Virus record (IMG/VR): IMGVR_UViG_3300034072_000926
Coordinates: 41,621-105,620 of that record
DNA length: 64,000 bases
From: a virus
Strand: one strand, 5' to 3'
The position numbers and the translations under genes were made by a program. Positions 649 to 63,907 of this stretch are shown piece by piece. The notes beneath the pieces were generated by a model, which was not told the DNA's origin, did not search any database, and saw nothing but the letters and a program-made list of their open reading frames with translations. Positions within the stretch are counted from its first letter, which is position 1; the number at the start of each line of letters is the position of its first letter.

Positions 649-1190
649 ATAATAAGACCGGAATGAACGAACTTGTGAGCGAATGTATGACTTGCAGTAG
701 GCATGAAAGCCACACCTTTATCCCCCGCTACAATAGATAGACATTAAAAATCTATATTGTAGTGAGGGAATCAGTGTCTTGCAGTTAGAGGCTGTCAGAG
801 CACACCTTGAAACTGACACCATGTAAGCATGGCACCGGGGTCACGTTGTCGGTCTTAGGTCAGGAATCCTGGAATAGTGGCGGCGTCCTACCAGTCACAT
901 TTCAAGTTGCAATTGGTAGGCAGAAAGGTGGTCGGAGTGGACCAGAGCTTTCATCCTTGGGCTACTTGCGTTGTTTATACTGGCGCCAGACGTAACCTTT
1001 TCAACTCTTTGCAGAGGAGGCCGCCACCCATGGGATGGTTCCTCACCATCCCTGATCTTCCAGTTTGCGCCTAGCCGCTACCATTCCGTCTTCTTCCGGA
1101 CAAGGTTGAGATAACACTAGGTTGTCGTGTGCCTATTTAAAGGCTTGTCATTTTGGATAACGTACCGGACAACCCAGAGTCAATTACTCT

Positions 1191-4718: not shown

Positions 4719-4827
4719 ACCGACCTCGAGTATTCAGGTTTACCTGATATTTAGTTTTGTCGATCAAGGGCACTCGAGGGTAAATCCGGAGGACACCTTA
4801 TTGTATGTCCTCCGGAACTAGATTGCA

Positions 4828-11186: not shown

Positions 11187-11187
11187 A

Positions 11188-12974: not shown

Positions 12975-12991
12975 CTCACTATTATGGGCTT

Positions 12992-19055: not shown

Positions 19056-19205
19056 TTTATGTTCTCTTTATCTGGCAACCAGAATCTTTAGAGAGGGTTG
19101 AGTTATTGTCCTCTTATGTCATTTATACAGAAACAGGTGATTAGGCGCAATATATGCGTTGATAATTTCCACCTTAAATAGGATGAACCCTAGAAGGAGA
19201 ATCTT

Positions 19206-27519: not shown

Positions 27520-27548
27520 GTGAATCTCCTAAATAGGCGTGGGTTTTA

Positions 27549-27557
27549 CCTATTTAG
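27549..27557 (-). promoter_or_regulatory. late-promoter-like CTAAATAGG about 30 nt upstream of start
   Basis: plus-strand CCTATTTAG; also pairs with CTAAATAGG at 27529-27537 (9-bp inverted repeat). Confidence 0.4.
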
Positions 27558-29097: not shown

Positions 29098-29136
29098 AAC
29101 ACCCTTTTTACATATTTAGATTAGAACGTCAAGCCC

Positions 29137-34138: not shown

Positions 34139-34146
34139 TTATTTAG
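34139..34146 (-). promoter_or_regulatory. late-promoter-like CTAAATAA upstream of tRNA
   Basis: about 35 nt upstream of the tRNA 5-prime end on the minus strand. Confidence 0.3.
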
Positions 34147-37077: not shown

Positions 37078-37122
37078 TCGGTGGAGTCATACCGCACCTA
37101 AGGAGTTGATTGCCTTAGGAAT
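37054..37122. repeat. copy B of ~70-nt direct repeat with internal hairpin
   Basis: hairpin CCTAAGG/CCTTAGG (compensatory relative to copy A), followed by AATTTT. Confidence 0.6.
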
Positions 37123-37421
37123 TTTGCCAATTAGGCAGCCAGAGCTACTTCATTGGCGACAACTTCGTTGTCATTGACAGTTACGTCGTTGGTCTTTTAA
37201 GGAAACCACTCCTGTTATCTCTCGCAGCCGTTTGCGCACACGTCGATCCTAAGTTCAGGCCCATCATAACCGCTCTTTACAGAGCCGAGTCACTTCTTAG
37301 GGCAGTGACTCTCAGTTATGGTGGACCTGCCGGGTACCGCCCCCGGGTCCGTTGATTGCTATTAAGCTTTGGTCATCAATAACAACACCACTATAACAAT
37401 GGTGTTACGGGCTGTCAAGCC

Positions 37422-37721
37422 TTAATTAGCAGTCGCTGCCCTATATTGTTCGGCGGCGTCTTCCTTAGGTAGAGCACCAGCAACAATATGGGATTCACGA
37501 ATCGAAACAGTTGCGTCATTATCTGCCGCAGCCATCCAAGGCGTGAACATCACACGAACCTGCGTTGGGTTCTCTGGATTCTCAGCCAAGACCATAGCGA
37601 GTGGATTCTTGACCTTGACTTCTGAAGGGGTGAATTCGACAACCAGCGCGATGATCTCTTCGCCCGTCGATAGCTTCATAGTCATAATGGTAGGCTCTGT
37701 GGCCTTCTTCTCATGTAGCAT
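37422..37721 (-). CDS. hypothetical protein (99 aa)
   Basis: ORF track. Confidence 0.4.
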   Translation of the reverse strand: MLHEKKATEPTIMTMKLSTGEEIIALVVEFTPSEVKVKNPLAMVLAENPENPTQVRVMFTPWMAAADNDATVSIRESHIVAGALPKEDAAEQYRAATAN

Positions 37722-42540: not shown

Positions 42541-42548
42541 ATATTTAG
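42541..42548 (-). promoter_or_regulatory. late-promoter-like CTAAATAT upstream of nrdA
   Basis: plus-strand ATATTTAG. Confidence 0.35.
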
Positions 42549-43073: not shown

Positions 43074-43724
43074 TTAGACTGCTTGGGTAGGTGGCGAAGG
43101 ATCTACCTCAGGGGCAGACCATTCTCGTCCACTCAGCGATAGCGTTAGCTCAAGACCAAAATTGTTCCTAAACGCTAGCCAAGTAATACCTGTGTCAGCA
43201 CCGGTCAGATCATAACGAGTTAACTGGAAATGACCAGTTGTGCTCGTAGGAAGATTTGCCGATCCGCCTGGCCAGTTCAAAGAACACATCGAGCCAGAAG
43301 TTAAGTTGACAACAGATTGATCTGGATCACTAGGATGAACGCAGACCGTCATAATGCCCATAAGCTTGACCGAACCACCGTTGCCATAGAGGCTAAAATC
43401 GTAAGTAGCAAAGTCACGTTCGTTATGGACGAAAAGTGGGAAGACGCTGGTCATGTTGCTGTTCGAGCCACACACCGCAGACACAAGAGGTCCGTGATAG
43501 TAGACATCGCCGCCAATGCCACGCTGAATATCAAGTTCAGTTAGAAGCTTGATATTCTGATAGGGATAGGATTTCCTGCCAGACACGCTGGGATGAGTCT
43601 GTGCGCCGATGAAAACTTCACCAGTGTCAGTAGTCATTCCAATCTCGCCATCTTCTAGAGCATTAGGGAGTTCCCCGCTAGTGCCCCTTCGATGTTGGAT
43701 CCTGGAGATCTGATAAACAGCCAT
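43074..43724 (-). CDS. hypothetical protein (~217 aa)
   Basis: ATG at 43724 (track uses upstream TTG); AATAAATA late-like motif about 25 nt upstream. Confidence 0.45.
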   Translation of the reverse strand: MAVYQISRIQHRRGTSGELPNALEDGEIGMTTDTGEVFIGAQTHPSVSGRKSYPYQNIKLLTELDIQRGIGGDVYYHGPLVSAVCGSNSNMTSVFPLFVHNERDFATYDFSLYGNGGSVKLMGIMTVCVHPSDPDQSVVNLTSGSMCSLNWPGGSANLPTSTTGHFQLTRYDLTGADTGITWLAFRNNFGLELTLSLSGREWSAPEVDPSPPTQAV

Positions 43725-43796
43725 TCTGTCCTCCAATTTACCCTATATTTATTCTCCGCCGCTTGACTTAATCCTATTTCGTGCTAAAGATATCAT

Positions 43797-44859: not shown

Positions 44860-44963
44860 GTCTTTTTCTTTCTAGATATACGGATTCTGGATGTGATTGT
44901 CTATATCCGATCTAGCCCAGACATGGGTGAAGCGGGGAATTGTCTCCCCGCTTCGTATTTACC

Positions 44964-46595: not shown

Positions 46596-46954
46596 CAGAA
46601 GATCCTCCAGAAGAAAGTGTTACCAGTGCTGGTATTCTTTAGCGGGGTCACCTGATAGCCGAGATCAACGAAGTTCTTCTGCACGATATCAATCTGTTCC
46701 TTAAGGCTACGATTATCAAGGTCAGCAAAGAGAACGCCGTAATAGTCACGAGCATCAATCTTTGCTTCATTGAGGGGATCATAGCTCAATGGATCAGTCA
46801 TTGGGCTGACAATGCTCTTGCCAACTTCTACAGAGAGTTCGCCAGCTTCAATAGCCTGATAGATAGCTTCCTCAAGAGCACGAATCTCAGCATGAATTGC
46901 TAGATTGTTCCTCGAGCCTGCACGGGCTTCTGCGGCCGTGGGGAATGTGTTCAT
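46592..46954 (-). CDS. hypothetical protein (120 aa)
   Basis: ORF track; 4-nt overlaps. Confidence 0.4.
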   Translation of the reverse strand: MNTFPTAAEARAGSRNNLAIHAEIRALEEAIYQAIEAGELSVEVGKSIVSPMTDPLSYDPLNEAKIDARDYYGVLFADLDNRSLKEQIDIVQKNFVDLGYQVTPLKNTSTGNTFFWRIFW

Positions 46955-47319
46955 AGTTCATCACCTTTTCGGTCAATCGAGCGGAGAGCAGCAGAACGAA
47001 CAGCTTTATCGTCCTTTTCTGCTTGCTTCTGATCCACTTGTCGTCCAGCGGTTGGATTGTCGATGAATACGCTCATTTGTCCAGTTTCTGGATCAGGCGT
47101 AACATTGATACCCTGAACACCCTTAAGAGCCTGGTTCACCAATTCAGGCGAAGCGGCGGTTCCTTCCAGGTCAGGGTTAGCGGACAATAGGTCAACAACC
47201 TGCTGAACCGTAATAGTTTCAGCACCTTGGGCTTTAAGCGATGCCACGACGTCGAGGATAGCGTTCTTGGCAACATCCAAGACTCCCATATCTTCGACTA
47301 CAATTTCATTCCAACGCAT
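46951..47319 (-). CDS. hypothetical protein (122 aa), N-terminus MRWNEIVVEDM
   Basis: ORF track. Confidence 0.4.
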   Translation of the reverse strand: MRWNEIVVEDMGVLDVAKNAILDVVASLKAQGAETITVQQVVDLLSANPDLEGTAASPELVNQALKGVQGINVTPDPETGQMSVFIDNPTAGRQVDQKQAEKDDKAVRSAALRSIDRKGDEL

Positions 47320-47395
47320 TAGTGCCTCCTAAATTGTCCACTATTTACACTTTAGTCATGGTAAAGCCCCGACGTTTCCGCCGGGGCCCTATCTA

Positions 47396-49711
47396 TTACT
47401 TGTTCAGCTTAGGATTGATCGAGATCTTCTTAGCTGGGGTAGGATTGATCGAGATCTTCTTCGCAGGAGTTGGGTTAATGGAAACCTTCTTCGCAGGAGT
47501 TGGATTGATCGAGACCTTCTTCGATGGAGCAGGGGTTACCTGTGCGACCAGGTCATCCATTTCCTTGTTGCCCTGGTTCATCATGTTGGCCTTAACGCCG
47601 GTCATGACCTTGTCCAGTGCTGGGCTTGCGGCAGCAGGAGCAGCGGATCCCATTGCAGCAGCAGCGCCCATACCAAGAGCAGCCTTCTTCAGCTTGTCCT
47701 TGAAACCTTCGTCAACCTTCTCTTCGGTCGACTCTTCCTTTGGTTCTTCGGCATCCTTCTTGGCAAATGGATTACCCTTTGGCTTTTCGGCAGCTTCTGG
47801 AGCCTTTGAACCACCAACTTCATCAGCCTTTGGCTCTGCGGCCTTTTCGCCACCCTCGGTCTTTGCAGCACCGGCTGGGTTGCTCTTCAGCTTCTGATAG
47901 TCGGTCGAGAATGGCTCGCCCTTATACTGGCCCATAGTGTCTACTGGCCAATGAGCAGCGTTGATGTTCTCGTTAACTGCTTCGTCGCCGTTCAGTTCGC
48001 TCGATGCAGCGGCAGCAAATTCACCAGCGTTCTTTGGAGTCTTGCCATCCTGCTTCATCTTGTTCAGCATCTTGTTCGCAACATTGCGCTCCTGACCAGT
48101 CATACCAGTCATTGCACTCTGAACGCTCTGGTTAGCAGCAGACTTGTTGGTGCCCATCTTGCCTGCCATCTTTGCCATTGCCGAACCGGCGACCTTCTGG
48201 TCCTGAGTCGAAAGAGCAGTGAATTCACGAAGCTTACGAACACTGTAGGCTGCTGGGCTTGCACCGAATTCTGCAGTGAAAGCTTCAACCAGTGCTAGAG
48301 TTGCGTTCTCATCGCCTTCCATCAGACCGGCCTTAGAAGCCATCAGATTCGAAAACTCACGAACGAACTTTGCAGCATTGCCCTTTCCTTCGCTCTGGAT
48401 CGAAGCTTCAATCAGCCGAGCGACCGAACGAGCAGCTAGAGTTGCCTCAGAAACTTCTTCGTCACCCTTTGCCTTCTCACGACGTGCCGACTTACGAGCA
48501 GCAAAGCGATCTGCCTTGTCGTCGTCTTCGTCGTTACCCTTGCGGAAGGTCTTGCCTTCGTCTAGCTCATCCTCGCCTTTACCCTTTTCCTTGCGGGCAG
48601 ACTTACGAGCAGCAAAACGTTCAGCCTTGTCATCTTCGTCGTCATTCTTGCGGAAAGTCTTACCTTCGTTGGTCTGCTTTGCCTGAGCAACAGCATCCTG
48701 GTATGCCTTTTCCTGTTCGTAATCATCCATCGACAACTGGCTCGAACCAGCTACGCGGTGATAATCGTAACCCTTCTTTGCAATAGCACCAACGCTACCG
48801 ACAGAAGCTAGAGCGGCCGCACCAAGAGCAGCATTCTTTAGGCCCCTAGTGAACTTGCCTTCAACGATGTCTAGGTCTGCACTCTGGGTGAAGGTTGGTT
48901 CGGCGAGCTGTGCCATTGCAGCGGCACCATGCTTCTTCTTACCAATCCAACCTGCCAGCTTAACTGGATCAGCGGCTGCCTTCTTTGCAACGCTCGATGC
49001 GAAGCTCTTGAAATGATCTTCTGGCATGCCCATTGCTGCTTCGTTGAGAACCCAATCAATCAGGCTTTCTAGCGACTCAGTTTCAAGTAGCCTGCGACCA
49101 GCAGCTTCTAGGATGATGGATTCGTTCAGGGCCTTACCGCCTTCAACGCTTTCCTTCTTTGCACGACCGAGTGGTTCTTCAACTGGACCAGCGGCAGCAT
49201 CAGCTGCACCGAAATCGTCCATTGCACCATCGAGGTCAGCCGACATATCGTCACCGGCTGGTTCTGCGAATGGATCAGCCGCTGGTGCTTCTGCACCAAC
49301 ATCAGCTGCCATATCATTAGCTGGAAGCTTACCTTCAAGACGCATAATGGAATTGCCCATTTCGTCCTTTGCACGACGAACAGTGTTCATCGCGTTGGTG
49401 ATTGCTTCCTGTGCAGAAGCTTCGAAGGTGTGAGCGCCGTCCTGGCCGAAGGTTGCCTTCATCTTGTCGACGAGTGGGAAGAGATCCTGTGCGTTCATCT
49501 TTGCCAGGTCTTCTGCCATGTTCTGCAGCTTGTGCATCATGTCCTGAGCGGCAAGGATGAGTTCAGCCTGATCCAGGTCGTTCTCAAGTAGGGTGGCCAT
49601 GCCAGATGGCTGAGCTGCTTCTTCCAGCTTACGAGCAGCCACTAGACGAGCCTGCACGTTTGCAACCTCCTCCTTGATCGCCTGAAGCTTTTCAAACTTA
49701 GTCTTGTTCAT
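47396..49711 (-). CDS. large Ala/Lys-rich, low-complexity protein with internal repeats (possible scaffold/internal head protein)
   Basis: 771 aa; C-terminal 4x KK(V/I)SINPTPA; internal ~37-aa duplication (GKTFRK..DEDD.KA.RFAARKSAR.EK.KG). Confidence 0.55.
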   Translation of the reverse strand: MNKTKFEKLQAIKEEVANVQARLVAARKLEEAAQPSGMATLLENDLDQAELILAAQDMMHKLQNMAEDLAKMNAQDLFPLVDKMKATFGQDGAHTFEASAQEAITNAMNTVRRAKDEMGNSIMRLEGKLPANDMAADVGAEAPAADPFAEPAGDDMSADLDGAMDDFGAADAAAGPVEEPLGRAKKESVEGGKALNESIILEAAGRRLLETESLESLIDWVLNEAAMGMPEDHFKSFASSVAKKAAADPVKLAGWIGKKKHGAAAMAQLAEPTFTQSADLDIVEGKFTRGLKNAALGAAALASVGSVGAIAKKGYDYHRVAGSSQLSMDDYEQEKAYQDAVAQAKQTNEGKTFRKNDDEDDKAERFAARKSARKEKGKGEDELDEGKTFRKGNDEDDDKADRFAARKSARREKAKGDEEVSEATLAARSVARLIEASIQSEGKGNAAKFVREFSNLMASKAGLMEGDENATLALVEAFTAEFGASPAAYSVRKLREFTALSTQDQKVAGSAMAKMAGKMGTNKSAANQSVQSAMTGMTGQERNVANKMLNKMKQDGKTPKNAGEFAAAASSELNGDEAVNENINAAHWPVDTMGQYKGEPFSTDYQKLKSNPAGAAKTEGGEKAAEPKADEVGGSKAPEAAEKPKGNPFAKKDAEEPKEESTEEKVDEGFKDKLKKAALGMGAAAAMGSAAPAAASPALDKVMTGVKANMMNQGNKEMDDLVAQVTPAPSKKVSINPTPAKKVSINPTPAKKISINPTPAKKISINPKLNK
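47405..47530. repeat. tandem 30-bp repeat (about 4 units)
   Basis: GATTGATCGAGATCTTCTT-type units; encode the KKxSINPTPA repeats on the minus strand. Confidence 0.6.
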
Positions 49712-49723: not shown

Positions 49724-50026
49724 TTAAGCGGAAGTCTTGTTTCGCTTGATACGCTTTGGCGCTACTTCGGAAAGGAAAATGCCAAGAGCTTCCTGAATGA
49801 GAACAGCCTCATTGTATTGAGGATTTTCATTGTAGGAATTGAAAGCAGATTCAGAGATGATCTTGCTTCGCTGTTGGCCATATGCCTCATGAAGGCTCTG
49901 GAGTTCTGCTAGGCTTTCAAAAGCCGAGAAATCAATCGTTACCCCGTGGGTAGATTCTAGGACATTCAAGATCCTAGACAAACGATAGCTTGAGCTCGTT
50001 TTGAGGTCATCGATGACCATAAGCAT
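49724..50026 (-). CDS. hypothetical protein (100 aa)
   Basis: CTAAATAT about 29 nt upstream (plus-strand 50055-50062). Confidence 0.4.
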   Translation of the reverse strand: MLMVIDDLKTSSSYRLSRILNVLESTHGVTIDFSAFESLAELQSLHEAYGQQRSKIISESAFNSYNENPQYNEAVLIQEALGIFLSEVAPKRIKRNKTSA

Positions 50027-50122
50027 CCTTCCAGTTAGCGCGCTGCGTTAGTCTCATATTTAGCGCGGACGTCTGTCAGTCAGCAGGAAACAACTAGCAT
50101 AATGCCAGTCGTTTCCCAATAA

Positions 50123-50852: not shown

Positions 50853-51083
50853 TTATCTCCAAAGGTCGTCGAGTTTGCTTACCACATAGTAGATGTTTCC
50901 ATCACGTTGGGTTCTTTCCAGAACGCCACGGCTGACCATCTTGCGGGCAACTTCACGTTGACGTTCATCTAGCTCTTTACGCTGGATGAATTGCCCCTCC
51001 TGAGATTCAATCAAATCAATCAGACCCTGCTCCTCTTGGGAAACAGGGATCTGAAGTCCGCCGCGAATCTCATGGAAGCGCAT
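50853..51083 (-). CDS. hypothetical protein (76 aa)
   Basis: ORF track. Confidence 0.4.
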   Translation of the reverse strand: MRFHEIRGGLQIPVSQEEQGLIDLIESQEGQFIQRKELDERQREVARKMVSRGVLERTQRDGNIYYVVSKLDDLWR

Positions 51084-51086: not shown

Positions 51087-52412
51087 TTACTTCTTACGGC
51101 GTTCGCCGAGGTAATCGCGACCCATCATCTGCACCTGATTAGTCAGGTCTTGCAGCTTCTGGATCAGGCTCTTGTATTCGGAGAGACGAATGTCTGCCAG
51201 CATGGTCTGAATGTTGTTCAGGCCGTCTTCAATCTGGCTCATTGCGTCGCTCTGTGTAGGAGCCATTGGCATTGCACCCGGCATACCCATTGGCTCAACT
51301 GGATCAGTACCAAGGGCACCTGGGATACCGGCGTCTGCAGGAATCTCTGCATCAAGGTCGCTGCCCATATCTACTGGTTCTGCGCCCGCAGGAGCAATCT
51401 CTGGAGCATCTAGGTCTCCAAGCTCTTCGGGTTCCCCACCGACTGGACCCGCAGCCAAAACACCCTCTGGATCAATCTCAGGGGCATCAGCAACTTCAAT
51501 ACCTGCAATGTCGTCATCCATCAGAGGCAGACCTGCGAGTTCGCGCAGGCGGAAGAGTGGGTTTACTTTGTTCATACCAATTACTCCTTCGTCTAGGCGG
51601 CTCACTTCAGTCTCAGCTACCATTTCAAGCTGGCCGTTCATAATAACGCCGATTGTTCCGTTTGGTCCATGTGGGATCTTGACCTGGCCGGTTACACCGC
51701 CAACGTTCACATCCTCACCAATTGCGAATTCGATCTCCTCGTCGAAACGAGGCTTGTGCTTGGCACCACGACCGTGCTTGTCTACCTTACGAGCGTCGAC
51801 GCCATCTTTGTGGTAGCCGGCCTTACCAGCAACCGGCATAGCAGCAAGTGGATTGCGCTGCTTCATAGTTGCCATCTTTTCACGAGCTTCACGCTCACGC
51901 TTCTTTGAATTCTTGCTCATCTTCTCTTCAATCTCAATGGAATCACGAACTGTTGGCTTGCGGAGGATCTCCGACAGAGCGCGACCAGTGCGATAAGCAC
52001 CTTCACGATCATTGCACTCAATGCGGTAGTTTACAGGACTGGTTGCCTGATAAGCAACTTCATTCTCGTCCAACCAATCCAGAACGCGATCACGGGTTTG
52101 TTCAGTAACTTCGACCGCATAGGTGAAGCCTTCATCAACGCGAGTCATAACACCGAAGGTTTCGTCCAGTGCCTTGCCTTCGCGGATGCTTTCCCATTGT
52201 GCGTTCAGGAGATCGTTGCTCATTGCAGCCTCATTCTTTAACTTGATACCATATTTACCTAAAAGAGAATTCACTCGAACAGTATTCCTGCTCTTGATCG
52301 CATCGACCAATGCCATAAGGATATTGCCTTCGATTTGTGCCTCCAGGTCATTAGCAGTTTTCTCATCCACACCCTTGCTTACAAGGTAGTCGGTCAAGTC
52401 GAACTTATCCAT
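51087..52412 (-). CDS. hypothetical protein (441 aa) with Pro/Asp/Ala-rich C-terminal region
   Basis: ORF track; possibly a morphogenesis protein. Confidence 0.5.
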   Translation of the reverse strand: MDKFDLTDYLVSKGVDEKTANDLEAQIEGNILMALVDAIKSRNTVRVNSLLGKYGIKLKNEAAMSNDLLNAQWESIREGKALDETFGVMTRVDEGFTYAVEVTEQTRDRVLDWLDENEVAYQATSPVNYRIECNDREGAYRTGRALSEILRKPTVRDSIEIEEKMSKNSKKREREAREKMATMKQRNPLAAMPVAGKAGYHKDGVDARKVDKHGRGAKHKPRFDEEIEFAIGEDVNVGGVTGQVKIPHGPNGTIGVIMNGQLEMVAETEVSRLDEGVIGMNKVNPLFRLRELAGLPLMDDDIAGIEVADAPEIDPEGVLAAGPVGGEPEELGDLDAPEIAPAGAEPVDMGSDLDAEIPADAGIPGALGTDPVEPMGMPGAMPMAPTQSDAMSQIEDGLNNIQTMLADIRLSEYKSLIQKLQDLTNQVQMMGRDYLGERRKK

Positions 52413-52721
52413 TCTTCTTTCCCTTCTTTACGTGAATACGGGTCTTGATCTTAGGACCACGATTCTCTTGGATGATCTGCTCAAATTGAAGAGACCATAG
52501 GTATGAAGCCTGTTCACGGATATTTCCAGCGACAGGCGTAATAAGAGGCTCATCGCCAAACAGCTCAGAAAGAGTCATTGGTTGCTCACAGGTTCAAAGT
52601 TGGATCCGTGGTATTTAGCTTATCGTGCAATCTGCGGAGCAATGTAGCTAGTTAAAGCAACATACCCAAAAAACGCACTTTACGGTAAATAACGGTAACG
52701 GTTCGCGTAGGGAGACTACAT

Positions 52722-52967
52722 ATGGGTGATCTATTCAAAAGTGTAGTCGAAATGATCGCGAAGGGCGAAGCAGGAGCTCTGACGGCTATTCTCCTAGCTA
52801 TCATTGGTGTCTTGGGTTGGTATTGTTTTCGCCTGATGAAGCAACTGGAAAAGAAGGACGAGAAGATCTATAAGATCATCGACGACTATTCCAAGAACAA
52901 CATCACTATCACTGACGCTCTAAACGGCCTCAAGACGGTGCTTATTGAGATTAAGGCAAAGCTCTAA
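52722..52967 (+). CDS. small single-TM protein
   Basis: 81 aa; LTAILLAIIGVLGWYCF TM; TAATG overlap with the PAS gene. Confidence 0.4.
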   Translation: MGDLFKSVVEMIAKGEAGALTAILLAIIGVLGWYCFRLMKQLEKKDEKIYKIIDDYSKNNITITDALNGLKTVLIEIKAKL

Positions 52968-54628
52968 TGTGGTTTAAAGATCGGAAGGAAAAGAAGAAGC
53001 AGCGTGAAGCTGTTTTGAAAGCGGCGCTTGACTCTAGCGAAGCCCTTGAAAAGGCCGCTAAAGGCACGATGAACCTTGCCGAAGATGTAACCAAAACCCT
53101 TCAAAGCAAAATTGACGACTATGCTCGGCAGATTGACCAAACGTCTAGTCTGCTGAGCGACGCTCTCATTCTAGTTGATGACCACGGAGTCATCGAAAGT
53201 TTCAATCCAGCGGCTGAAAAGATGTTTGGTATTGCTAGGAGACATATCAGGGGGAAGAGCATTTCTAAGCTCTTCGAATTCCCCAAAGATACTATCATCG
53301 ACCCAGTGTTCATGGATGAACTAACCGTAAAGGTCAATGAGAATGATCCTGCAGCCACTGTCCATTATGAAGACTTCATGGGCATCCGTAAAGATGGCAT
53401 GACTTTCCATGTGGACGTCAGTGCCAGCAAATTCACCAGGAACAACTCGAAAGTCCATTACATCATCCTAGTCCACGATGTGACCCACAAGGTGGCGAAT
53501 AGCAAAATGGTCGAAGATCTTGCTCAGAGGAACATGGAACTCCTTGCTACCATTGATGCATCAAATACCGGATTCATTATCCTAAGCCCTGATGGTAGCG
53601 ACTTCAAGATCAACTTCGTCAACATGGGCTTTAGTCGTCTCACTGGGTATTCTAGGACTCAGATCAAGAATATGAGCCTTATGGATCTTCTTGGCATCGA
53701 GCAAACTTTCTGGTCGGTTCGTCGTAGCCTTCTTGAACAGAAAGAAGCACGTCACGAAGTCCAGCTAGAGATCGGAACATGTCAGACTATCTGGTTTGAC
53801 ATTCAGATCACACCAGTGTTCAACGATGGTATCTGTAGTCAGTGGATCTTAGTGTTCTATGACACTACTGCACTAAAGAAAGCATATCACGATCTCAGGA
53901 AGAGCGAATCACATTTCAAGGCGTTTAGTGATGCAAGTTCCGAGTCCATGCTTATCCACAACTTTGGTCAGGTCATTGATTGGAACGATCGCCTCAACGC
54001 ATTGACTGGCTATACAGATGAAGAGATTGAGAAACTCATGCCTCTTGATCTTGTCCATCCTCTCGAACGTGAGAAGATCAGAGAAGAGGTTCATTTAACT
54101 GGTAACAATAGCTATGAAACGCTATTCATGACCAAACAAGGCGATGTTCGTGAGGTTGCAATCAACAGTCGTTCCATTGAATGGGATAACACTGATGCAA
54201 GGATTTCAATTGTTCGAGATGTAACCGAATACAAGGATATCGAGACTCAGTTGAAGACTGCAAGGGAGCGTTATCGCACGGTCATCGATAACACGATCGA
54301 TATGGTCATTTGCTTCAATAGCGATTTCGAGATTACCTTCTCGAATCAGACCTTCCGTGACTACTATGAAGTAGAGCTAGAAGACATCAATGGGTTCTCA
54401 CTCTTGGAGATCATCCCTGAGACTGACCATAAGAAGTTCAAGGAATATATGATGGAGATCGCCCCTGGGAATGATGTTCGTCGAGGTATTCACCGTGTCC
54501 AGCGTCATGGAGACATTAGGATGCAGGATTGGATCGACCGTGGCATCTTTGATGAAGATGGAAATCTCATTGAAATTCAGAGTGTTGCTCGAGACGTAAC
54601 TAGCCTTTTGCCTCCACCTACTACTTGA
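52967..54628 (+). CDS. four-PAS-domain protein without recognisable output domain
   Basis: 553 aa; four repeats of about 110 aa each with a PAS-like core (..D..G.I...N......G........G........). Confidence 0.65.
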   Translation: MWFKDRKEKKKQREAVLKAALDSSEALEKAAKGTMNLAEDVTKTLQSKIDDYARQIDQTSSLLSDALILVDDHGVIESFNPAAEKMFGIARRHIRGKSISKLFEFPKDTIIDPVFMDELTVKVNENDPAATVHYEDFMGIRKDGMTFHVDVSASKFTRNNSKVHYIILVHDVTHKVANSKMVEDLAQRNMELLATIDASNTGFIILSPDGSDFKINFVNMGFSRLTGYSRTQIKNMSLMDLLGIEQTFWSVRRSLLEQKEARHEVQLEIGTCQTIWFDIQITPVFNDGICSQWILVFYDTTALKKAYHDLRKSESHFKAFSDASSESMLIHNFGQVIDWNDRLNALTGYTDEEIEKLMPLDLVHPLEREKIREEVHLTGNNSYETLFMTKQGDVREVAINSRSIEWDNTDARISIVRDVTEYKDIETQLKTARERYRTVIDNTIDMVICFNSDFEITFSNQTFRDYYEVELEDINGFSLLEIIPETDHKKFKEYMMEIAPGNDVRRGIHRVQRHGDIRMQDWIDRGIFDEDGNLIEIQSVARDVTSLLPPPTT

Positions 54629-54845: not shown

Positions 54846-55163
54846 TTAGAAAGTGAATGCCGAAATCACAACTGCGAAACCGCAAGCAGCGGTAACTTCG
54901 TTCGAGAACGCAGTCAGGTCGCCGAAGATTTCGTTGTGCTCAACAGCGAAGTTGAGAACAGTTGCCGATGGGGTGCCCATAACAACAGGCTGTGCGCGGA
55001 TCGAGATTGCTTCGATCAGCTTGTCCATCTTAACCGAGTGCTGCTCTTCGTCGCCAACTAGGGTGGTCAGACCGCCCGAAGCAACAGTAGCAGTGAACAT
55101 TGGCAGGCCGCCAGACAGGAACTGATCTGGGGTCTTTGCGAAGCCGTGAACCTTCTGAGTCAT
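54846..55163 (-). CDS. hypothetical protein (105 aa)
   Basis: canonical TATAAATA 36 nt upstream. Confidence 0.45.
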   Translation of the reverse strand: MTQKVHGFAKTPDQFLSGGLPMFTATVASGGLTTLVGDEEQHSVKMDKLIEAISIRAQPVVMGTPSATVLNFAVEHNEIFGDLTAFSNEVTAACGFAVVISAFTF

Positions 55164-55198
55164 TGTAAAATCTCCTAAAAGAGAGTTTCTGTTAACTC

Positions 55199-55206
55199 TA
55201 TTTATA
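55199..55206 (-). promoter_or_regulatory. T4-type late promoter TATAAATA
   Basis: plus-strand TATTTATA; 36 nt upstream of the ATG at 55163. Confidence 0.45.
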
Positions 55207-55219: not shown

Positions 55220-55423
55220 CTAACGACGGATAATAGCAGGGGCTACTTCAGAGGTCTTCTTGCGCTTCTTCTTACGTTCAGCAGCATCGTAGATACCCTT
55301 GTGGCCATTCGGATCAAAGCCAGCACCAATCCCACCAACACTGGTCGCTACATTGCCTGATGCCGATGCGCCGGCGGTTGCCGTTTCGAGAATAGGGGTC
55401 GCTACGATTTCTGTCCAACGCAT
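55220..55423 (-). CDS. small protein (67 aa), N-terminus MRWTEIVATP
   Basis: shares its N-terminal 7 residues with the 46951..47319 product. Confidence 0.3.
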   Translation of the reverse strand: MRWTEIVATPILETATAGASASGNVATSVGGIGAGFDPNGHKGIYDAAERKKKRKKTSEVAPAIIRR

Positions 55424-56328
55424 TATTTCACCTGTAATCCGAGATCCTTGAATGAGTCAGGTATTTCAACCTTCAAGCTATTTAAGCGCTCATGATAGAT
55501 ATTACGGATTGTGTTGCAGTCCTCCCAGGTGTAAATGCGACGACAGGTCATCCAGAGACCTTCAATGGTTTTCATTTCAGAACCATTAAGATAAGGACGT
55601 TCACCGAACAACAGTTCTGGCATTAACGCAGGATCATTTATAACTTCTCGGGTGGCAGGAAGAGCTGACGGGAAGATTTGAAGAAACTCATCCTTCGAGA
55701 CTTCCTTGAAGTCCTGAACTCGACCCTTGCCGTCCTTACGCATAGGACGATAGCGATAGCGCCATACACAACCACGATCATGAAAGAACGTTGGACCCAC
55801 TCGAGCAATGACTTTACCATCGTCTTCTAACACCCAATCACTGTTGAAGGCCACAATAGCCTTGATCATTTCTGTTCGGTACAACCCCTTATAGTTTGAA
55901 GTATCTTGCGGCTGTCGATACCAGGGTATACTGGCCAAAGTCAGGGCCGGAGAGAAGTAGGAGAACTCCTGCCACTCGAAGTTGCCGAACATGAAGTCAA
56001 TCTGCACATATCCGTTGTCAGGATTGCCGTCAATAGGGACCGCCGTGAAGATCTGATTATTACCAGGACGAGGCTTAACGTGGTCCTCTCCCAAGAAGGC
56101 GATCAGCTGACTAGCGACCTTTGCCTGGTCATAACGAGTAATCTCGAGGTTGAGATCAATGTCGCCGGAGTCAGGATTCTTTCCTGCACTACCCAGCATA
56201 GCTTCGCGTAACTCAGAGGTTTTGTTGAGGGTGTAGTCGGGCCACTTCTTTTCTAGCCAGAACAACGTGTGTTCTATCTCTTGTCGAAGGATCCGTCGGG
56301 TAACTCCCTCGAATGCTTTACCGCCCAT
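55423..56328 (-). CDS. hypothetical protein (301 aa)
   Basis: ORF track. Confidence 0.45.
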   Translation of the reverse strand: MGGKAFEGVTRRILRQEIEHTLFWLEKKWPDYTLNKTSELREAMLGSAGKNPDSGDIDLNLEITRYDQAKVASQLIAFLGEDHVKPRPGNNQIFTAVPIDGNPDNGYVQIDFMFGNFEWQEFSYFSPALTLASIPWYRQPQDTSNYKGLYRTEMIKAIVAFNSDWVLEDDGKVIARVGPTFFHDRGCVWRYRYRPMRKDGKGRVQDFKEVSKDEFLQIFPSALPATREVINDPALMPELLFGERPYLNGSEMKTIEGLWMTCRRIYTWEDCNTIRNIYHERLNSLKVEIPDSFKDLGLQVK

Positions 56329-57546: not shown

Positions 57547-58470
57547 TTAGGTGCGGCTGCGGAGAAGTGCAAAACCGATCATCGACAGGATTTTTCTCTC
57601 CTTGTCGGTAAATTCGCTAGGCTTCCTAGTCATGCTGGCTTTACGCAATAAAGCGGAAACGGTCTGTGGGCTGATACCCATAGCGTCCAGACCACGCATC
57701 ATTTCTTTCGTGTCGTATTGACCGCTTGGCTTCTTGCCGCCTTCGTTCTTTCCGAGGTCAGCATTCATATTGATGCCACCGCGACCACCCTTCATGATAC
57801 CAGCTTGAGCAGCCTGTGCGATTGCATCGGCTTTGTCATTTGCTGGTCCATTGTAGAGATAATTGTCGTTGATACGGGCTGCACTGGCGTTCATCATAAT
57901 GTCGACGACATCATCGGGTAGCGGGACAGTCTCATCGTAGTCTTCCGCTTCGTTGGTCTTCTTACCGACTTCGCCATAGTCGCTCAGCTTTGTGTTGAGA
58001 TCCTTAGGAAGAGGACGACCATCCTCTTCTTGTTCAGCGCCAGTCTTGATTGTCTTTTCGATTGGCTTTTCTTCAGCATTAGGCTCTGCAGGTTCATCAG
58101 ACCCTTGACGCAAATTCGCCTTGTGCATCACAAAGTCAATGTCTTCGTCCGTGAAGCCAATCCTGTGAGTCATGAAACGATCCATGTCCTCAAGGGTGCC
58201 TTCTCGATCTGTCTGGCCTAGCCAAGTGAGCCACTGCTTTTTGAGGTCACTGGCAAGCTTCTTGCGTTCCTTGTCGCCAAGACGACGCTTGATCTTATTC
58301 TTGAGATTTCCCACCCAACCTTCGTTGACAGGAGTTTCGCAAGACTCAAGGAGATTAAGGACTTGTCGCATCCTTTCGCTGTCATTTGACATTCTTTTTC
58401 TTCTCCTCATCCTTACGGAATTCACGAATCTTGCGATTAAATTTGTCTGGGTCACGATTCTTGATAGCAC
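57547..58470 (-). CDS. hypothetical protein (about 280-307 aa; start uncertain)
   Basis: ORF track; 5-prime end overlaps the next ORF. Confidence 0.4.
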   Translation of the reverse strand: MLSRIVTQTNLIARFVNSVRMRRRKRMSNDSERMRQVLNLLESCETPVNEGWVGNLKNKIKRRLGDKERKKLASDLKKQWLTWLGQTDREGTLEDMDRFMTHRIGFTDEDIDFVMHKANLRQGSDEPAEPNAEEKPIEKTIKTGAEQEEDGRPLPKDLNTKLSDYGEVGKKTNEAEDYDETVPLPDDVVDIMMNASAARINDNYLYNGPANDKADAIAQAAQAGIMKGGRGGINMNADLGKNEGGKKPSGQYDTKEMMRGLDAMGISPQTVSALLRKASMTRKPSEFTDKERKILSMIGFALLRSRT

Positions 58471-58654
58471 CTAATAGGCGACGTTGCAACTCATCAGCTT
58501 CCTCTTCAGAGAAAGTTTCCGAAATCAAGTTCATGAGATTAACCGCACTAGCGATCACATTAGTCGCTCGTGCTTCTAAGATTTGGTGCCTATCCCTCTG
58601 AGGGACGAAGAGATCGAGCTCTTCGATTAAGCTTTTTACGCGAGCGTCTTTCAT
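58382..58654 (-). CDS. small hypothetical protein (90 aa)
   Basis: ORF track. Confidence 0.3.
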   Translation of the reverse strand: MKDARVKSLIEELDLFVPQRDRHQILEARATNVIASAVNLMNLISETFSEEEADELQRRLLGAIKNRDPDKFNRKIREFRKDEEKKKNVK

Positions 58655-58660: not shown

Positions 58661-58942
58661 TTACTCCTTGGAGAATCCAGAATAGCGTTCCAATAGTCGC
58701 TCTAACATATTGGCAGCGAGTGCTAAACCCTCTTCGACGCCACGAGCGTAGTCCAGATTGTCGTCCGACTCACTGTAACTGCGAAGTTTGAAAATCATAT
58801 CATTAACATCTTCTAAAAGATATGGAGAGTCATCGAGGTCAGGGACCTCGATGGTCTCCAGAATCATGTCGTCCTCCTGGGACATCGTGGTGCTTTCAGT
58901 TAACCTGAAATACCTCCTAATGTCATCGGGTTGACTGTCCAT
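58661..58942 (-). CDS. acidic hypothetical protein (93 aa)
   Basis: CTAAATAGGG about 27 nt upstream (plus-strand 58968-58977). Confidence 0.4.
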   Translation of the reverse strand: MDSQPDDIRRYFRLTESTTMSQEDDMILETIEVPDLDDSPYLLEDVNDMIFKLRSYSESDDNLDYARGVEEGLALAANMLERLLERYSGFSKE

Positions 58943-58982
58943 TCATGACTCTCCTAACTGGCGCGCACCCTATTTAGCAGAA

Positions 58983-60519: not shown

Positions 60520-61551
60520 TTATACTAAGCGTTGCCGCCTTACACCTATTTCTAGCTTATTCTTTGTCATTGCATCAATAATTGACCACACCGTATAGAG
60601 TTTTCCGTAAGCTTTTACCGCATCTGCGGCGTCCTTGATGCCAGTGTCCCAACGAGGAAAGGACACATACCATCCCTCACTGAGGGCAGTATCAACAAGC
60701 TTACCGCCTTGTTCTACGCGGTCGGGAACAACAATGATTTTCTTGCCAGTTTGATTAAGCCAACGTGCTTGGTCAGGCATGACCTTGTCACCAAGCATCG
60801 CAATACCATTTATCGCGATACCATCGAAGGGTCCTTCACAGACGAATAGAAATTCCCAGTCCTTCTTGATCGCTTCGGTGTTGAAGAGATAACGAGGCTG
60901 GACTTCACTAAAGTATCGCATTGGTGACGAATTGTCGATCACACGAGCAGTCCAACCGACGACTTCATGTTCCCAGAAGAAGGGAATGATAACTCGACGA
61001 TTCAATCCATTTGTCTTCTCAGGTGTCCAATAGAAGTCTGCCCCTAAGAGGACTTCATCACCACGAGTTGACAAGTAGGCAAGAGCATCGAGGAAGTCTG
61101 GATCGGTTAGTTCATGCTCGAGCCAGAACGTGATTGGTTTGGCACCCTTAGGCAAAGGCACTGGCTTGAACTCTAGTCGCTCGAGAAGTTCACGAGGGGC
61201 CATGGAGACCAACTCACCCTTCTCAAGCATGTTCTTCCTCAGTTCCTCAACATAGAAACCAAGCCAATCAAGTTCTTCCTTAGGCATACCCAGCCACTGG
61301 AAGTAATCTTTCCACTTTGTAGTGAATCGACTTCCAGGTGTCCAAGCAGTCTTAAAGCCACAGTTGAAGCAGGAGATTGTTGTTCGACCGTCGAAGTCAA
61401 ACATCAATCCTCCACGCTTCTTAGTATCAGGTCGGGACTGTCCGTTATGAATGCAGCATGGACCATTGAATCTCATCCACCTACTAGGAGTGGATTGCGC
61501 TCCAGATATATGCTTGATTAGGGCATCGTAGACGAGAGTCAAAGGGTTCAT
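60520..61551 (-). CDS. DNA primase (T4 gp61-like; zinc ribbon + TOPRIM)
   Basis: 343 aa; CC..C..C zinc ribbon (PCCIHNG...SCFNCG); TOPRIM-like CEGPFDGIAI and VVPDRVEQG; lies beside the helicase as in T4. Confidence 0.65.
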   Translation of the reverse strand: MNPLTLVYDALIKHISGAQSTPSRWMRFNGPCCIHNGQSRPDTKKRGGLMFDFDGRTTISCFNCGFKTAWTPGSRFTTKWKDYFQWLGMPKEELDWLGFYVEELRKNMLEKGELVSMAPRELLERLEFKPVPLPKGAKPITFWLEHELTDPDFLDALAYLSTRGDEVLLGADFYWTPEKTNGLNRRVIIPFFWEHEVVGWTARVIDNSSPMRYFSEVQPRYLFNTEAIKKDWEFLFVCEGPFDGIAINGIAMLGDKVMPDQARWLNQTGKKIIVVPDRVEQGGKLVDTALSEGWYVSFPRWDTGIKDAADAVKAYGKLYTVWSIIDAMTKNKLEIGVRRQRLV

Positions 61552-63302
61552 TAGAGTTCAAACAATCCATCGTTCATGATAGCCAGCTTTGGCTTGTTTT
61601 CGGCCAGGGTTGCAGCTTCTGCTTCCTTCCTAGCCTTCGTGACCTGCTTGTGTTCCTTGATGTCACCCAACTCGAAAGTTGAATAGTCAAGAACGCCACG
61701 TTCTGCATTGTCACTTGCAAGATAGTTCAGGATCTTACGATTCTTCTCAAGGTAGTCGTTGTAGTTCTCAACCTTGAAAGCTTCCTCGATGACACCCTTG
61801 AGCTCAAGCAACTGGGCCGGAACCTTCGCGGGATCATTCGAGTCGTAGAGTTCCTGAGACTCATAAACGCCTTCTAGGTGAACCTGGACGTTATGATTCA
61901 TCAGCATTGCATAGGTAACAACGTCCCATGTCGAAGTGAACTTAGGGTCCACGTTGACACAGATATCACCCATTGTGAGGCGCTTGCCGATTTCAGTCTC
62001 AACAAAGCGAGAACCTTCGACACCCTTGAGACGTTCGTCGAACATGTCCTTCAGAACATCAAGGAAGGGACGATCAGCTTCCGAGCCCTTAGCAGGGAGA
62101 GGAATCTTCTGTCCGTTCTCATCCAACTTATAGACAATCCTGTCCTTACCTGTCGATATCATTTCGTGACCGATTTGTTCAATACCGTCCTTATCGAAAT
62201 AGGTATTGGTAGGCAGGTAGTGACGACCGTCTAGCTTCTCACCCTGAATTGACCAGCTGTCCTTGTTCAGGTTATAGCCGAGGAAGACCTTGCCATAAGC
62301 TGCTAGGGTGAAGGGTGACGAAACGTCATAGGAGATCGTGAAGTTCGGATTGATCTGTTCACGAACCTGACGCTGGATGGTGGTATAGATGCAACCGTGC
62401 TGGAACTTGCCAACACCAAGAAAGTGCATCCAGTCCTTGTCCTGCAGGAGACCGTCATCCCTCATATTGAGGATACGACCCAAGCCCATCTCAAAGTTTT
62501 CCTTGTGATGGCTTGCAAGCGACCAACCCTCAAAGGGATAGTGCTTGACGTTCTCATACCAAATCTTAGATTCGGTTGGATTACGACCCTGAACAACATT
62601 TAGGAACTTCGTTGCGCCAGGAACTCGGTTAGCCACGAAGTAATCGTTGTTGATGATCGTCTGCAACATACAGGCGTAATAGAGACGATCATTGATGTCA
62701 TTGACGTTGCCACCATTCTTGATAATAAGGGCATCGAGTGCCGCCTTATTATTGAAATCCGGAGACTGGAAGGTTTCCATCTTCGGAGTACCATCTTCGT
62801 TGAAGATCTTCTTCTTGTTGGCGTCAATGGCTTGCAAGAAGCCAGTCGTCGATTCAAGACGCTCAAGGTGACGGTCGATGTTACCAAGACCAATACCACC
62901 AGTTGGGAAGTCGAGGACCATTGACCAATCACAGTTGGCTTCCATCCAGCGCATCATCTTCTCGCGGGTCTTATCGCCCTCGAACTTGATCGCGCCTGTC
63001 TGGATCTGAAATCCACCAGAGTCGCCCAACACCGTGAACATGCCAGGTGTGCGATCACGACCAGTAACCATGTCCTTGCGATGCGTGACTGCATTGCCCT
63101 TAGCAGCCTGTCCGGCCGAATATAGAGCGCTGTTCAGATAGAACAGGTTCGTGTTCGAATCAAAGAAATTCAAATCACTACGAGGGATAGGTGGCTCCCT
63201 CTTTGGGTTTTCCGCATTCACGTAGCGGACATACATTTCTGAGATAGCCGGTGTGAACCGAGCATAATCTCGATATCTCTTGGAATAGTCAATACCGGAC
63301 AT
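61551..63302 (-). CDS. tRNA-guanine-transglycosylase superfamily protein (possible DpdA-like DNA transglycosylase)
   Basis: 583 aa; VLGDSGGFQ motif matching the TGT DSGGFQ active-site region, followed by a MVLDFP segment resembling TGT DIVMIFDEC. Confidence 0.45.
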   Translation of the reverse strand: MSGIDYSKRYRDYARFTPAISEMYVRYVNAENPKREPPIPRSDLNFFDSNTNLFYLNSALYSAGQAAKGNAVTHRKDMVTGRDRTPGMFTVLGDSGGFQIQTGAIKFEGDKTREKMMRWMEANCDWSMVLDFPTGGIGLGNIDRHLERLESTTGFLQAIDANKKKIFNEDGTPKMETFQSPDFNNKAALDALIIKNGGNVNDINDRLYYACMLQTIINNDYFVANRVPGATKFLNVVQGRNPTESKIWYENVKHYPFEGWSLASHHKENFEMGLGRILNMRDDGLLQDKDWMHFLGVGKFQHGCIYTTIQRQVREQINPNFTISYDVSSPFTLAAYGKVFLGYNLNKDSWSIQGEKLDGRHYLPTNTYFDKDGIEQIGHEMISTGKDRIVYKLDENGQKIPLPAKGSEADRPFLDVLKDMFDERLKGVEGSRFVETEIGKRLTMGDICVNVDPKFTSTWDVVTYAMLMNHNVQVHLEGVYESQELYDSNDPAKVPAQLLELKGVIEEAFKVENYNDYLEKNRKILNYLASDNAERGVLDYSTFELGDIKEHKQVTKARKEAEAATLAENKPKLAIMNDGLFEL

Positions 63303-63342
63303 TAACTGCCTCTCTTATAGGGTTAACCTCACTATAGGCTAA

Positions 63343-63351
63343 CCTATTTAG
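63343..63351 (-). promoter_or_regulatory. late-promoter-like CTAAATAGG
   Basis: about 41 nt upstream of the ATG at 63302. Confidence 0.35.
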
Positions 63352-63355
63352 GCAG

Positions 63356-63907
63356 TCAATTTCTAAACACCAGTTTGGTAATTTTACCTTCGTCGGCAGG
63401 TAGAACATATGGGTTGAATTCCAGCTGTTCATACTTGTTGATCAAGTAGACACGAACCCACATGAAGTTGCCTTCAAAGGTAAAAGCTTCGGTAGAAGTC
63501 TGATGATCATATTCCCTGACTTCGATATCGAACCAGTTAAGTTCGGTTGGAACACTAGGCTCCAAACTCCCTTGGATCTTGAAGTGGCCAGAGAAGTTAT
63601 CGAGGAATGCAACAAGGGTATGGACCCCTGAGGTGTTGTTTCGCTGGAGCGAGCCCTCTAGAGCGCTTGAAACGCGGATAGATGTATCAAGACCGTCAAT
63701 CTCTGCATTGGTCAATGACAGAGCTTCGTAGGGGATTTCCACACTAGGCTGGGGATCGAAGATAGGACCCTGTGCTAGTTCAAAGAAACCAGTCTGACTT
63801 TCAAAGGTGTCCATGTAGAGCATGTGAGTGCTACCATCAACATTGGTGACTTGAACGCTATAGGAATAGGTCTGGAGAAACCAATCGGCCGTAACATCAG
63901 GCAACAA
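63356..63907 (-). CDS. hypothetical protein (183 aa)
   Basis: ORF track. Confidence 0.4.
   Translation of the reverse strand: MLPDVTADWFLQTYSYSVQVTNVDGSTHMLYMDTFESQTGFFELAQGPIFDPQPSVEIPYEALSLTNAEIDGLDTSIRVSSALEGSLQRNNTSGVHTLVAFLDNFSGHFKIQGSLEPSVPTELNWFDIEVREYDHQTSTEAFTFEGNFMWVRVYLINKYEQLEFNPYVLPADEGKITKLVFRN

Follow-up and report, generated by a model that had tools for sequence, protein, structure and literature searches.

A conserved TAAATA element upstream of virion and other genes of an uncultured huge phage is probably a promoter read by its T4 gp55-like sigma factor

The window analyzed here comprises 64,000 nucleotides of viral DNA (positions 41,621 to 105,620 of IMG/VR record IMGVR_UViG_3300034072_000926). 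On its minus strand, at 55199-55206, it carries the octamer TATAAATA, the late promoter sequence of bacteriophage T4. A first-pass annotation, made from the sequence alone, had regarded this octamer as a canonical T4 late promoter and had noted a related motif, CTAAATA, upstream of further genes. The locus raises the question whether this phage uses T4-type late promoters and which bases constitute the signal. The repeated occurrence of (C)TAAATA upstream of genes is real and is conserved in related phages; most probably, the T4 gp55-like sigma factor encoded by the phage itself recognizes the motif as a promoter. This interpretation draws on the statistics, position, orientation and conservation of the motif, the lack of a -35 element, a sigma factor gene and an association with virion genes, and it was upheld in every test run.

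By exact protein match, the window corresponds to about 166.7-230.7 kb of contig CACUZI010000001.1 (GCA_902726455.1, 389,450 bp) in reverse complement and is therefore a fragment of an uncultured huge phage. Together with two further segments, L167 and L169, about 94 of the 389 kb of this contig were covered. A gene model based on open reading frames (ORFs) and ribosome-binding sites was built for this analysis (91% coding) and was revised before intergenic DNA was shuffled. The octamer is present as described, with 35 nt between motif and ATG. As the only copy in the window against 0.57 expected, it is not significant alone, and its first T (position 55206) is either C or T in relatives, which carry GATAAATA or TATAAATA; its canonical appearance is a coincidence. 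CTAAATA was found in 11 copies against 4.04 expected, a number reached in none of 100 shuffles, and the unit shared among all NTAAATA contexts was the hexamer TAAATA. Seventeen of the 24 TAAATA copies lie in non-coding DNA, which accounts for ~9% of the window (hypergeometric p = 6e-14). An unbiased k-mer scan returned TAAATA as the most intergenic-enriched hexamer, above the Shine-Dalgarno (SD) words, and ranked CTAAATA first among the heptamers, 10 of its 11 copies being intergenic. Enrichment relative to shuffled sequence was a check set beforehand: dinucleotide-preserving shuffles of the intergenic DNA yielded 4.3 ± 2.1 copies (maximum 12) against 18 observed, a value reached in 0 of 2000 shuffles. 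Within 100 nt upstream of a start on the same strand, 15 copies were located, separated from the start by 10-42 nt and in a single case by 96 nt; in spacers between same-strand genes, 13 copies were co-oriented with the genes and 2 opposed (p = 0.004). The first-pass observation is confirmed and stronger than first stated.

The individual sites required some revision (Table 1). Among the minus-strand CTAAATA copies listed in the first-pass annotation, those at 27551, 29113, 34140, 42542, 50057, 58971 and 63345 were found, and the one at 43747 reads ATAAATA; most had been placed 1-3 nt too low, with trailing bases included. Further copies were detected at 4748 and 52612 (CTAAATA), at 47342 and 52685 (+) (GTAAATA), and inside genes at 52252 and 55479. 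The plus-strand motif announced before the gene at 19206 is TTAAATAGG at 19174-19182 (+), 25 nt upstream.

For the anatomy of the element, 18 promoter-like sites were aligned, anchored on the hexamer. Information is confined to the six core bases, which are invariant across these sites, and one-mismatch variants co-oriented near starts are fewer than exact copies (10 versus 15); the element is therefore near-invariant. The preceding base is C in nine sites, G in four, T in three and A in two (C enrichment p = 0.009); with the sites of L167 and L169 added, C is found in 13 of 26. C is therefore a preference of about 50%, not a requirement. A gp55-type sigma factor, proposed in the first-pass annotation to prefer CTAAATA, is encoded on the contig; the conserved unit is TAAATA, with C in only about half of the sites (9/18). 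The two bases after the hexamer lean to G/T and then G, in rough agreement with that annotation. Many sites have a terminator-like hairpin immediately before them and an SD sequence and ATG after them.

Counted from the hexamer, all positions between -45 and -2 have an information content close to zero, and the 18 aligned sites have no TG extension. This bears on the possibility that TAAATA is the -10 box of the host's primary sigma factor and that these are ordinary host-type promoters. The alphaproteobacterial primary-sigma consensus is roughly CTTGAC-N17-CTATAT; CTAAAT differs from CTATAT by one base, the host is probably an alphaproteobacterium (see below), and a few sites have TTGA-like words somewhere upstream. 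These words, however, are located 2-9 nt and not 16-18 nt from the motif, and the alignment carries information neither at -35 nor at another constant distance. Furthermore, the six bases are invariant across sites and phages, unlike degenerate sigma70 -10 boxes, a distinct sigma70-like class of spacers (TTGAC-N16-18-TAnnnT) precedes other window genes, namely two topoisomerase genes, an IF3-like gene, 17866-18408 and 24612-25736, and a gp55-type sigma factor is encoded on the same contig. We therefore consider host-type promoters very unlikely.

Conservation was analyzed in relatives identified through the 771-aa virion protein (47396-49711). The relatives of this protein in Sinorhizobium phage Phosso (469 kb), Agrobacterium phage Atu_ph07 (490 kb) and Pseudomonas phage PA5oct are distant. 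When IMG/VR was scanned with it, four syntenic loci were obtained with 59-66% amino-acid identity, one on a 462-kb contig. TAAATA is invariant at 11 of 11 orthologous positions in the loci L002, L004 and L005, and the flanks diverge except for the SD sequence and the first codons. Each site has kept a base of its own before the hexamer, as exemplified by the G before the orthologues of 46951-47319 in every relative; stable non-C bases at particular sites again mean that C is not required. Over 32 kb of synteny with Phosso (34-50% amino-acid identity), TAAATA occurs at orthologous upstream sites, mostly as ATAAATA, and 12 of 17 Phosso copies fall within the 6.9% of annotated non-coding DNA (p = 5e-11). 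The nrdA start at MGNTPIM, favored in the first-pass annotation because of the motif, is corroborated: motif, SD sequence and ATG are conserved in L002, L004 and L005.

A signal that always precedes the SD sequence at a short distance, with some copies in predicted hairpins with the SD, might also act in RNA, as an A/U-rich translation-enhancing leader or as a nuclease or processing site. Yet TAAATA also precedes a tRNA gene, which argues for a transcription and not a translation signal, and its distance to SD or ATG varies from 15 to 55 nt. Terminator-like hairpins, often immediately before the motif, mark it as the start of a unit, and divergent pairs of the motif are located between divergent genes (52612/52685 and L167 9060/9076). 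The motif also co-occurs with a gp55-type sigma factor whose known target holds the same hexamer. An RNA element is thus highly improbable.

The sigma factor itself is encoded outside the window. Gene product gp694 of Atu_ph07 has been annotated as a T4-like late sigma factor (PMC6102473), and it has homologues in Phosso, PA5oct, Rak2-like phages, cyanophages and T4-like phages; those of GAP32 and CBB are ~38% identical to it. A tblastn search of the window with the Atu_ph07 gp55-like protein gave no match, which places the gene outside. Related-locus searches were uninformative: the Atu_ph07 query matched only itself, and an alignment of three sequences missed the contigs of close relatives. 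A profile search of 5.8 billion proteins identified P0045 on the 389,450-bp contig and P0039 on the 462,455-bp contig of a relative. Hence, the suggested search for a gp55 homologue was successful: P0045 (292 aa) is encoded at 88664-89542 of CACUZI010000001.1, the window's own contig, ~78 kb away. Downstream of its gene are gp47- and gp46-like genes, and a baseplate operon with gp53-like, gp25-like and hub genes runs in the divergent direction. P0045 matched PHROG 12791 "sigma factor for late transcription" (5.7e-94), PHROG 234 (2.6e-22) and the T4 gp55 chain of PDB 7d7c_F (1.8e-4). In the T4 structure, the bases at -12, -9 and -8 are flipped into gp55 pockets formed by N13, L54, R57, F86, H95, Y97 and T99 (PMC7892883). 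According to the weak alignment with P0045, five of these residues are retained (N13 as N11, R57 as R183, F86 as F210, Y97 as Y221, T99 as T223) and two are changed (L54 to Y180, H95 to F219).

The genes behind the motif were examined by class. All six matches to virion or head PHROGs are located in TAAATA-led units, which hold 34 of the 95 genes (p = 0.0015), and almost no TAAATA is associated with the small paralogous genes at 7-24 kb, the topoisomerase genes and the IF3-like gene. In L169, CTAAATA is found 21 nt before the gp25-like baseplate gene. It is unlikely, though worth considering, that the same promoter is not late-specific and that the gp55-like sigma factor, or another phage factor, drives all post-early genes in a merged middle-plus-late program, for which "late promoter" would be the wrong name. 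TAAATA also precedes nrdA, tRNA-Thr, ClpX, a secreted-type nuclease and the operon of a 583-aa protein, primase and helicase, and, in L169, gp47-like and HNH genes; relatives have kept the sites of nrdA and of the primase operon, and no middle-promoter-like third motif was prominent in the k-mer scan of the window. Such a general role is, however, at odds with the finding that all virion matches belong to TAAATA units and that the motif is missing before the topoisomerase, IF3-like and small paralogous genes. Furthermore, a sigma70-like promoter overlapping the primase-operon site could supply early expression, and T4, too, has late promoters before some non-structural genes and in its tRNA region. 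The label "late" is reasonable but unproven, because the motif precedes nrdA, tRNA, ClpX, nuclease and primase operon.

In the interpretation we favor, that of promoters read by the phage's gp55-like sigma factor, NTAAATA with C preferred at N would be the -10-like element of T4-type late promoters, equivalent to positions -12 to -6 of TATAAATA. The host RNA polymerase core with P0045 would recognize this single element without a -35 contact, and transcription would start ~6 nt downstream, giving short leaders of 10-50 nt that carry the SD sequence. Such promoters would head most operons of the virion cluster (43-59 kb), the baseplate operon in another part of the contig, and also the non-virion units of nrdA, tRNA-Thr, ClpX and, with the overlapping sigma70-like promoter, primase-helicase. 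The sigma70-like class would serve topoisomerase, IF3-like and other presumably early genes.

One promoter is apparently combined with a hairpin. At 27529-27557, upstream of the Ig-like head protein gene 26848-27519, a 9-bp inverted repeat (CTAAATAGG / CCTATTTAG) is present as previously noted; its second copy is the 3' arm of a hairpin over the SD sequence and not a promoter. The plus-strand CTAAATA at 27529 was rejected as a second promoter, because it is directed into a minus-strand gene, and a role as the SD-covering arm accounts for it better. In a read-through RNA, the leader of 26848-27519 has a predicted folding energy of -18.9 kcal/mol (z = -4.2; 0 of 200 shuffles as stable), with CUAAAUAGG pairing with CCUAUUUAG, which runs into the SD sequence, and CCCAU pairing with AUGGG; an RNA beginning at a T4-like +1 has only -5.2 kcal/mol (z = -0.15). 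A related-locus search with the Ig-like protein returned matches to Ig domains only and no orthologues. Protein search yielded six orthologous leaders (52-71% amino-acid identity), so that seven leaders including that of the window were compared. Each of the six has CTAAATA 28-42 nt before the ATG. Each also has, at the promoter or farther upstream, a pyrimidine-rich anti-SD, and the sequences by which it pairs with the SD differ, for example GAUCUCC/GGAGAUC, CCUCC/GGAGG-like and AUCUCCU/AGGAGAU. Assuming a T4-like start, the predicted probability that the SD is unpaired was 0.00-0.21 in read-through RNA and 0.28-0.59 in promoter-initiated RNA for 7/7 orthologues; all seven were below controls with shuffled upstream sequence, three of them at ≤3/100. 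For six of the seven leaders, the pairing partners are located almost wholly upstream of the presumed start; for the remaining leader, they are mostly upstream.

The inverted repeat looks like a hairpin of the T4 gene e type, as judged from the predicted folds. In T4 gene e (lysozyme) and I-TevI, a late promoter lies within a hairpin that masks the ribosome-binding site of read-through transcripts (PMC3014915). Similarly, promoter-proximal or upstream sequence is predicted to pair with SD and AUG at 27529-27557 and its orthologues (7/7); read-through RNA would be masked by this anti-SD/promoter segment, and RNA started at the promoter of 26848-27519 would lose the masking arm and should be translatable, as for gene e. 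The arrangement differs in that the gene encodes an Ig-like head protein and not a lysis protein or homing endonuclease, that it is a predicted arrangement here, that the effect was mixed over 15 promoters of the window, and that the nearest upstream promoter, at 29113, is likewise of the TAAATA type; gating may therefore not be early-versus-late. A similar 8-bp repeat covers the SD sequence at the ClpX site at 4748.

Several points weigh against the gp55-type interpretation or parts of it. The gene model is our own ORF-based call. P0045 aligns weakly with T4 gp55 (E = 1.8e-4), with two pocket residues differing. The -12 adenine of T4 is inserted into a gp55 pocket (PMC7892883), yet neither this A nor the -13 T of the full TATAAATA is conserved in this phage, and -13 carries no information. 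Two L169 copies fit a T4-like start point poorly, being too near the called start: the one at 9781 overlaps the ATG, and the one at 16123 is only 12 nt upstream. TAAATA-led units also include genes atypical of late expression, namely nrdA/nrdB, primase-helicase, gp47-like nuclease, HNH endonuclease, ClpX and tRNA. Phage CBB has a gp55-like sigma factor, and no gp33 or gp45 was found in it (PMC5259590). As to the hairpin, RNAalifold detected no common helix in the seven leaders, because their anti-SD arms are out of register at different offsets. Among the 15 window promoters, SD masking was below 10% of shuffled controls in five and opposite in four, and masking by upstream sequence did not exceed that of shuffled controls overall. 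Which sigma factor reads the motif, the start point, late timing and translational gating are what we infer from these data.

Known systems provide a frame for these findings. The T4 late promoter is TATAAATA at -13 to -6, and its -13 T is poorly conserved in other T4-like phages (PMC1524935); the variation at -13 and -12 seen here agrees with that reported for Aeh1 and other T4-like phages. In T4, gp55 reads these promoters together with the co-activator gp33 and the sliding clamp gp45, through which transcription is coupled to replication. The phage studied here resembles T4 in its single near-invariant A/T-rich -10-like element with TAAATA and no -35, located shortly upstream of virion genes, and in a gp55-family sigma gene beside gp47/gp46-like genes, as is gene 55, with most gp55 pocket residues retained. 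It differs in that six of the eight bases are fixed, with C at -12 in about half of the sites (A in T4) and -13 free, that the sigma factor has 292 aa versus 185 aa, with ~125 extra residues after the N-terminal helix, and that units of nrdA, replication, ClpX and tRNA stand behind the motif as well. CTAAATA as a late-promoter variant of T4-like phages, mentioned in the first-pass annotation, is published for Aeromonas phage Aeh1, in which it starts at -12 (Nolan et al. 2006; PMC1524935). This 7-mer, likewise with C at -12, was identified there by the same approach, upstream of late-gene orthologues, and the Aeh1 gp55 is divergent; Aeh1, however, is a conventional T4-like phage, whereas C is only preferred here, in a huge phage of ~390-465 kb from the Atu_ph07/Phosso/PA5oct neighborhood. 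The Rak2-like jumbo phages CBB and GAP32 carry ATAAATA before structural genes, in CBB at 35 places (Buttimer et al. 2017; PMC5259590). These jumbo phages share a gp55-like sigma factor and the TAAATA core before structural genes; they are distant relatives with enterobacterial hosts and have A before the core, as has Phosso, in contrast to C here. The PA5oct omics paper reports sigma70-type promoters only and no late motif, and the AP-J-162 paper does not discuss promoters.

The signal is thus of an expected and already known kind, a TAAATA core with a lineage-specific C preference at -12, in a lineage where it was apparently undescribed. It will not surprise specialists, because the same core motif and sigma factor have been reported in T4-like and Rak2-like phages; it is ordinary for a gp55-bearing phage and useful in annotation, and the conserved promoter-in-hairpin leader is an attractive side result. 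For an uncultured huge phage of ~390-465 kb, it provides a transcription map that can be used, with operon heads and correct starts (nrdA, possibly 52223), and separates probable gp55-dependent genes from the host-sigma program. Furthermore, the T4 late-promoter paradigm now reaches into a huge-phage lineage very distant from T4, with the TAAATA core as the deeply conserved part. A broader proposal is put forward tentatively, and we rather doubt that it holds in full: in the Atu_ph07/Phosso-like clade and its metagenomic relatives, an enlarged gp55-like sigma factor may read the hexamer only, accept any base in the -12 pocket and act as a general post-early sigma factor for virion, nucleotide-synthesis, replication, tRNA and chaperone genes, possibly without gp33 and the gp45 clamp, with hairpin gating as a recurrent companion. 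Phosso, AP-J-162 and Atu_ph07 are cultured relatives in which the promoter prediction could be tested.

Table 1. TAAATA sites and other features of the window (L167 site on the adjoining segment).
Sequence or feature	Position	Strand	Context	Remarks
CTAAATA	63345..63351	-	42 nt before ATG of 61551-63302 (583 aa), then primase, DnaB-like helicase	CTAAATA also at orthologous Phosso position (L171 5180)
CTAAATA	58971..58977	-	28 nt before 58661-58942; operon includes virion protein 58382-58654	kept in L002, L005, Phosso
TTAAATA	55479..55485	-	in 3' end of gene 55423-56328, 55 nt before start of 55220-55423	TAAATA conserved in L002, L004, L005, Phosso
TATAAATA	55199..55206	-	35 nt before 54846-55163	core TAAATA 55199-55204
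GTAAATA	52685..52691	+	30 nt before 52722-52967 and PAS-domain gene 52967-54628	divergent partner of 52612
CTAAATA	52612..52618	-	33 nt before 52405-52578; operon includes virion protein 50853-51083	
GTAAATA	52252..52258	-	inside ORF 51087-52412; 28 nt before in-frame ATG 52223 with own SD	conserved in L002, L004, L005; absent in Phosso
CTAAATA	50057..50063	-	36 nt before 49724-50020 and 771-aa virion protein 47396-49711	
GTAAATA	47342..47348	-	22 nt before 46951-47319; operon ends with virion/minor-head-like 44964-46589	terminator-like hairpin just upstream; G before hexamer kept in all relatives
GTAAATA	44956..44962	-	overlaps stop codon of 44964-46589; 96 nt before exonuclease gene	hairpin directly after; conserved, promoter role doubtful
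ATAAATA	43746..43752	-	21 nt before virion protein 43074-43724	
CTAAATA	42542..42548	-	32 nt before nrdA ATG at 42509 (MGNTPIM)	
ATAAATA	36275 and 36352	+ and -	unassigned	two copies
CTAAATA	34140..34146	-	35 nt before tRNA-Thr (34031-34104)	
CTAAATA	29113..29119	-	15 nt before 28672-29097	nuclease, signal-peptide-like N-terminus
CTAAATA	27551..27557	-	31 nt before Ig-like head protein 26848-27519	doubles as hairpin 5' arm
CCTATTTAG	27529..27537	-	overlaps SD (TTTAGGAG)	hairpin 3' arm; + strand reads CTAAATAGG
TTAAATA	19174..19180	+	25 nt before 19206-19700	
CTAAATA	4748..4754	-	29 nt before ClpX-like gene 3468-4718	between arms of 8-bp inverted repeat (CCTCGAGT...ACTCGAGG); 3' arm covers SD
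TTAAATA	1134..1140	-	head of 542-nt stretch 649-1190	stretch without convincing ORF
Two TAAATA, opposite strands (ATAAATACAGGGTATTTAG)	L167 9060-9076	+ and -	between divergent genes, each copy 33-45 nt from the start of its own gene	overlapping face to face; contig just past window position 64000
Virion/head genes	58382-58654, 50853-51083, 47396-49711, 44964-46589, 43074-43724, 26848-27519		in TAAATA-led units	six PHROG matches
Host-type auxiliary genes	2880-3404, 3468-4718, 6265-6687, 18498-19055, 21462-22595	-		five genes
Small paralogous genes	9198-13713	+		in a run
Small paralogous genes	20318-21462	-		in a run
Long non-coding stretches	33872-34030, 35020-35274, 35467-35699, 649-1190			none at Rfam gathering score

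Some sites showed additional features. At 63331-63359 (-), a sigma70-like TTGACT-N17-TATAGT overlaps the CTAAATA of the 583-aa/primase/helicase operon, possibly forming a dual early-plus-late promoter. The leader AACAGAAACTCTCTTTTAGGAGA at 55164-55198 (-), before the 105-aa gene 54846-55163, is near-invariant in L002, L004 and L005 and largely kept in Phosso; this conservation far exceeds that of other leaders and suggests, from the sequence, an operator or RNA element. The GTAAATA at 52252 and the ATG at 52223 are possibly an internal promoter and start. In the same region (51087-52578, minus strand), two ORFs of 57 aa and 441 aa, read in different frames, share 8 nt and jointly correspond to one 590-aa Phosso gene; they could represent a frameshift, a split gene or a programmed event. 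The gene at 52967-54628 (+) encodes a 553-aa PAS-domain protein amid the virion-gene cluster, on the opposite strand and with its own GTAAATA promoter. Phosso has the same arrangement, with the gene annotated as PAS domain S-box protein. The face-to-face copies in L167 look, by their sequence, like an overlapping divergent promoter pair.

The window has a G+C content of ~48%, and a megablast search with 20 kb of it against the GenBank phage collection gave no match. It encodes T4-type topoisomerase II subunits, NrdA/NrdB, a DnaB-like helicase, a primase, a CCA-adding enzyme, tRNA-Thr and several virion proteins. P0121 (223 aa), the product of 26848-27519, has an identical copy on a 465,259-bp JGI contig, from which it follows that the 389-kb NCBI contig is probably not the full length of the phage genome.

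A phage-encoded permuted (two-piece) tmRNA of the alphaproteobacterial type was identified at 37060-37422 (-), with Rfam scores of 103 bits (RF01849) and 99 bits (RF04321); ORF 36292-37077 (+) was accordingly removed from the initial gene model. This tmRNA and the Sinorhizobium and Agrobacterium phage relatives indicate that the host is probably an alphaproteobacterium. AP-J-162, a related phage, has also been reported to carry a tmRNA (PMC11242549).

Auxiliary genes of host type, all on the minus strand, encode an IF3-like translation initiation factor (phrog_9787), ClpX with a zinc finger, an S-adenosylmethionine decarboxylase-like protein, QueD and the CCA-adding enzyme. Two of the unusually long non-coding stretches are rich in (G)TTGCAA repeats; TTGCAA is also intergenic-enriched in the window (14 of 54 copies). 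The 542-nt stretch at 649-1190 begins directly after the TTAAATA site. None of the small paralogous genes stands behind a TAAATA promoter; their conserved 3' ends, TCAA(A/G)CT..C.TGGGGTGG.. (..FKLTWGG*), overlap the start codon of the next gene.

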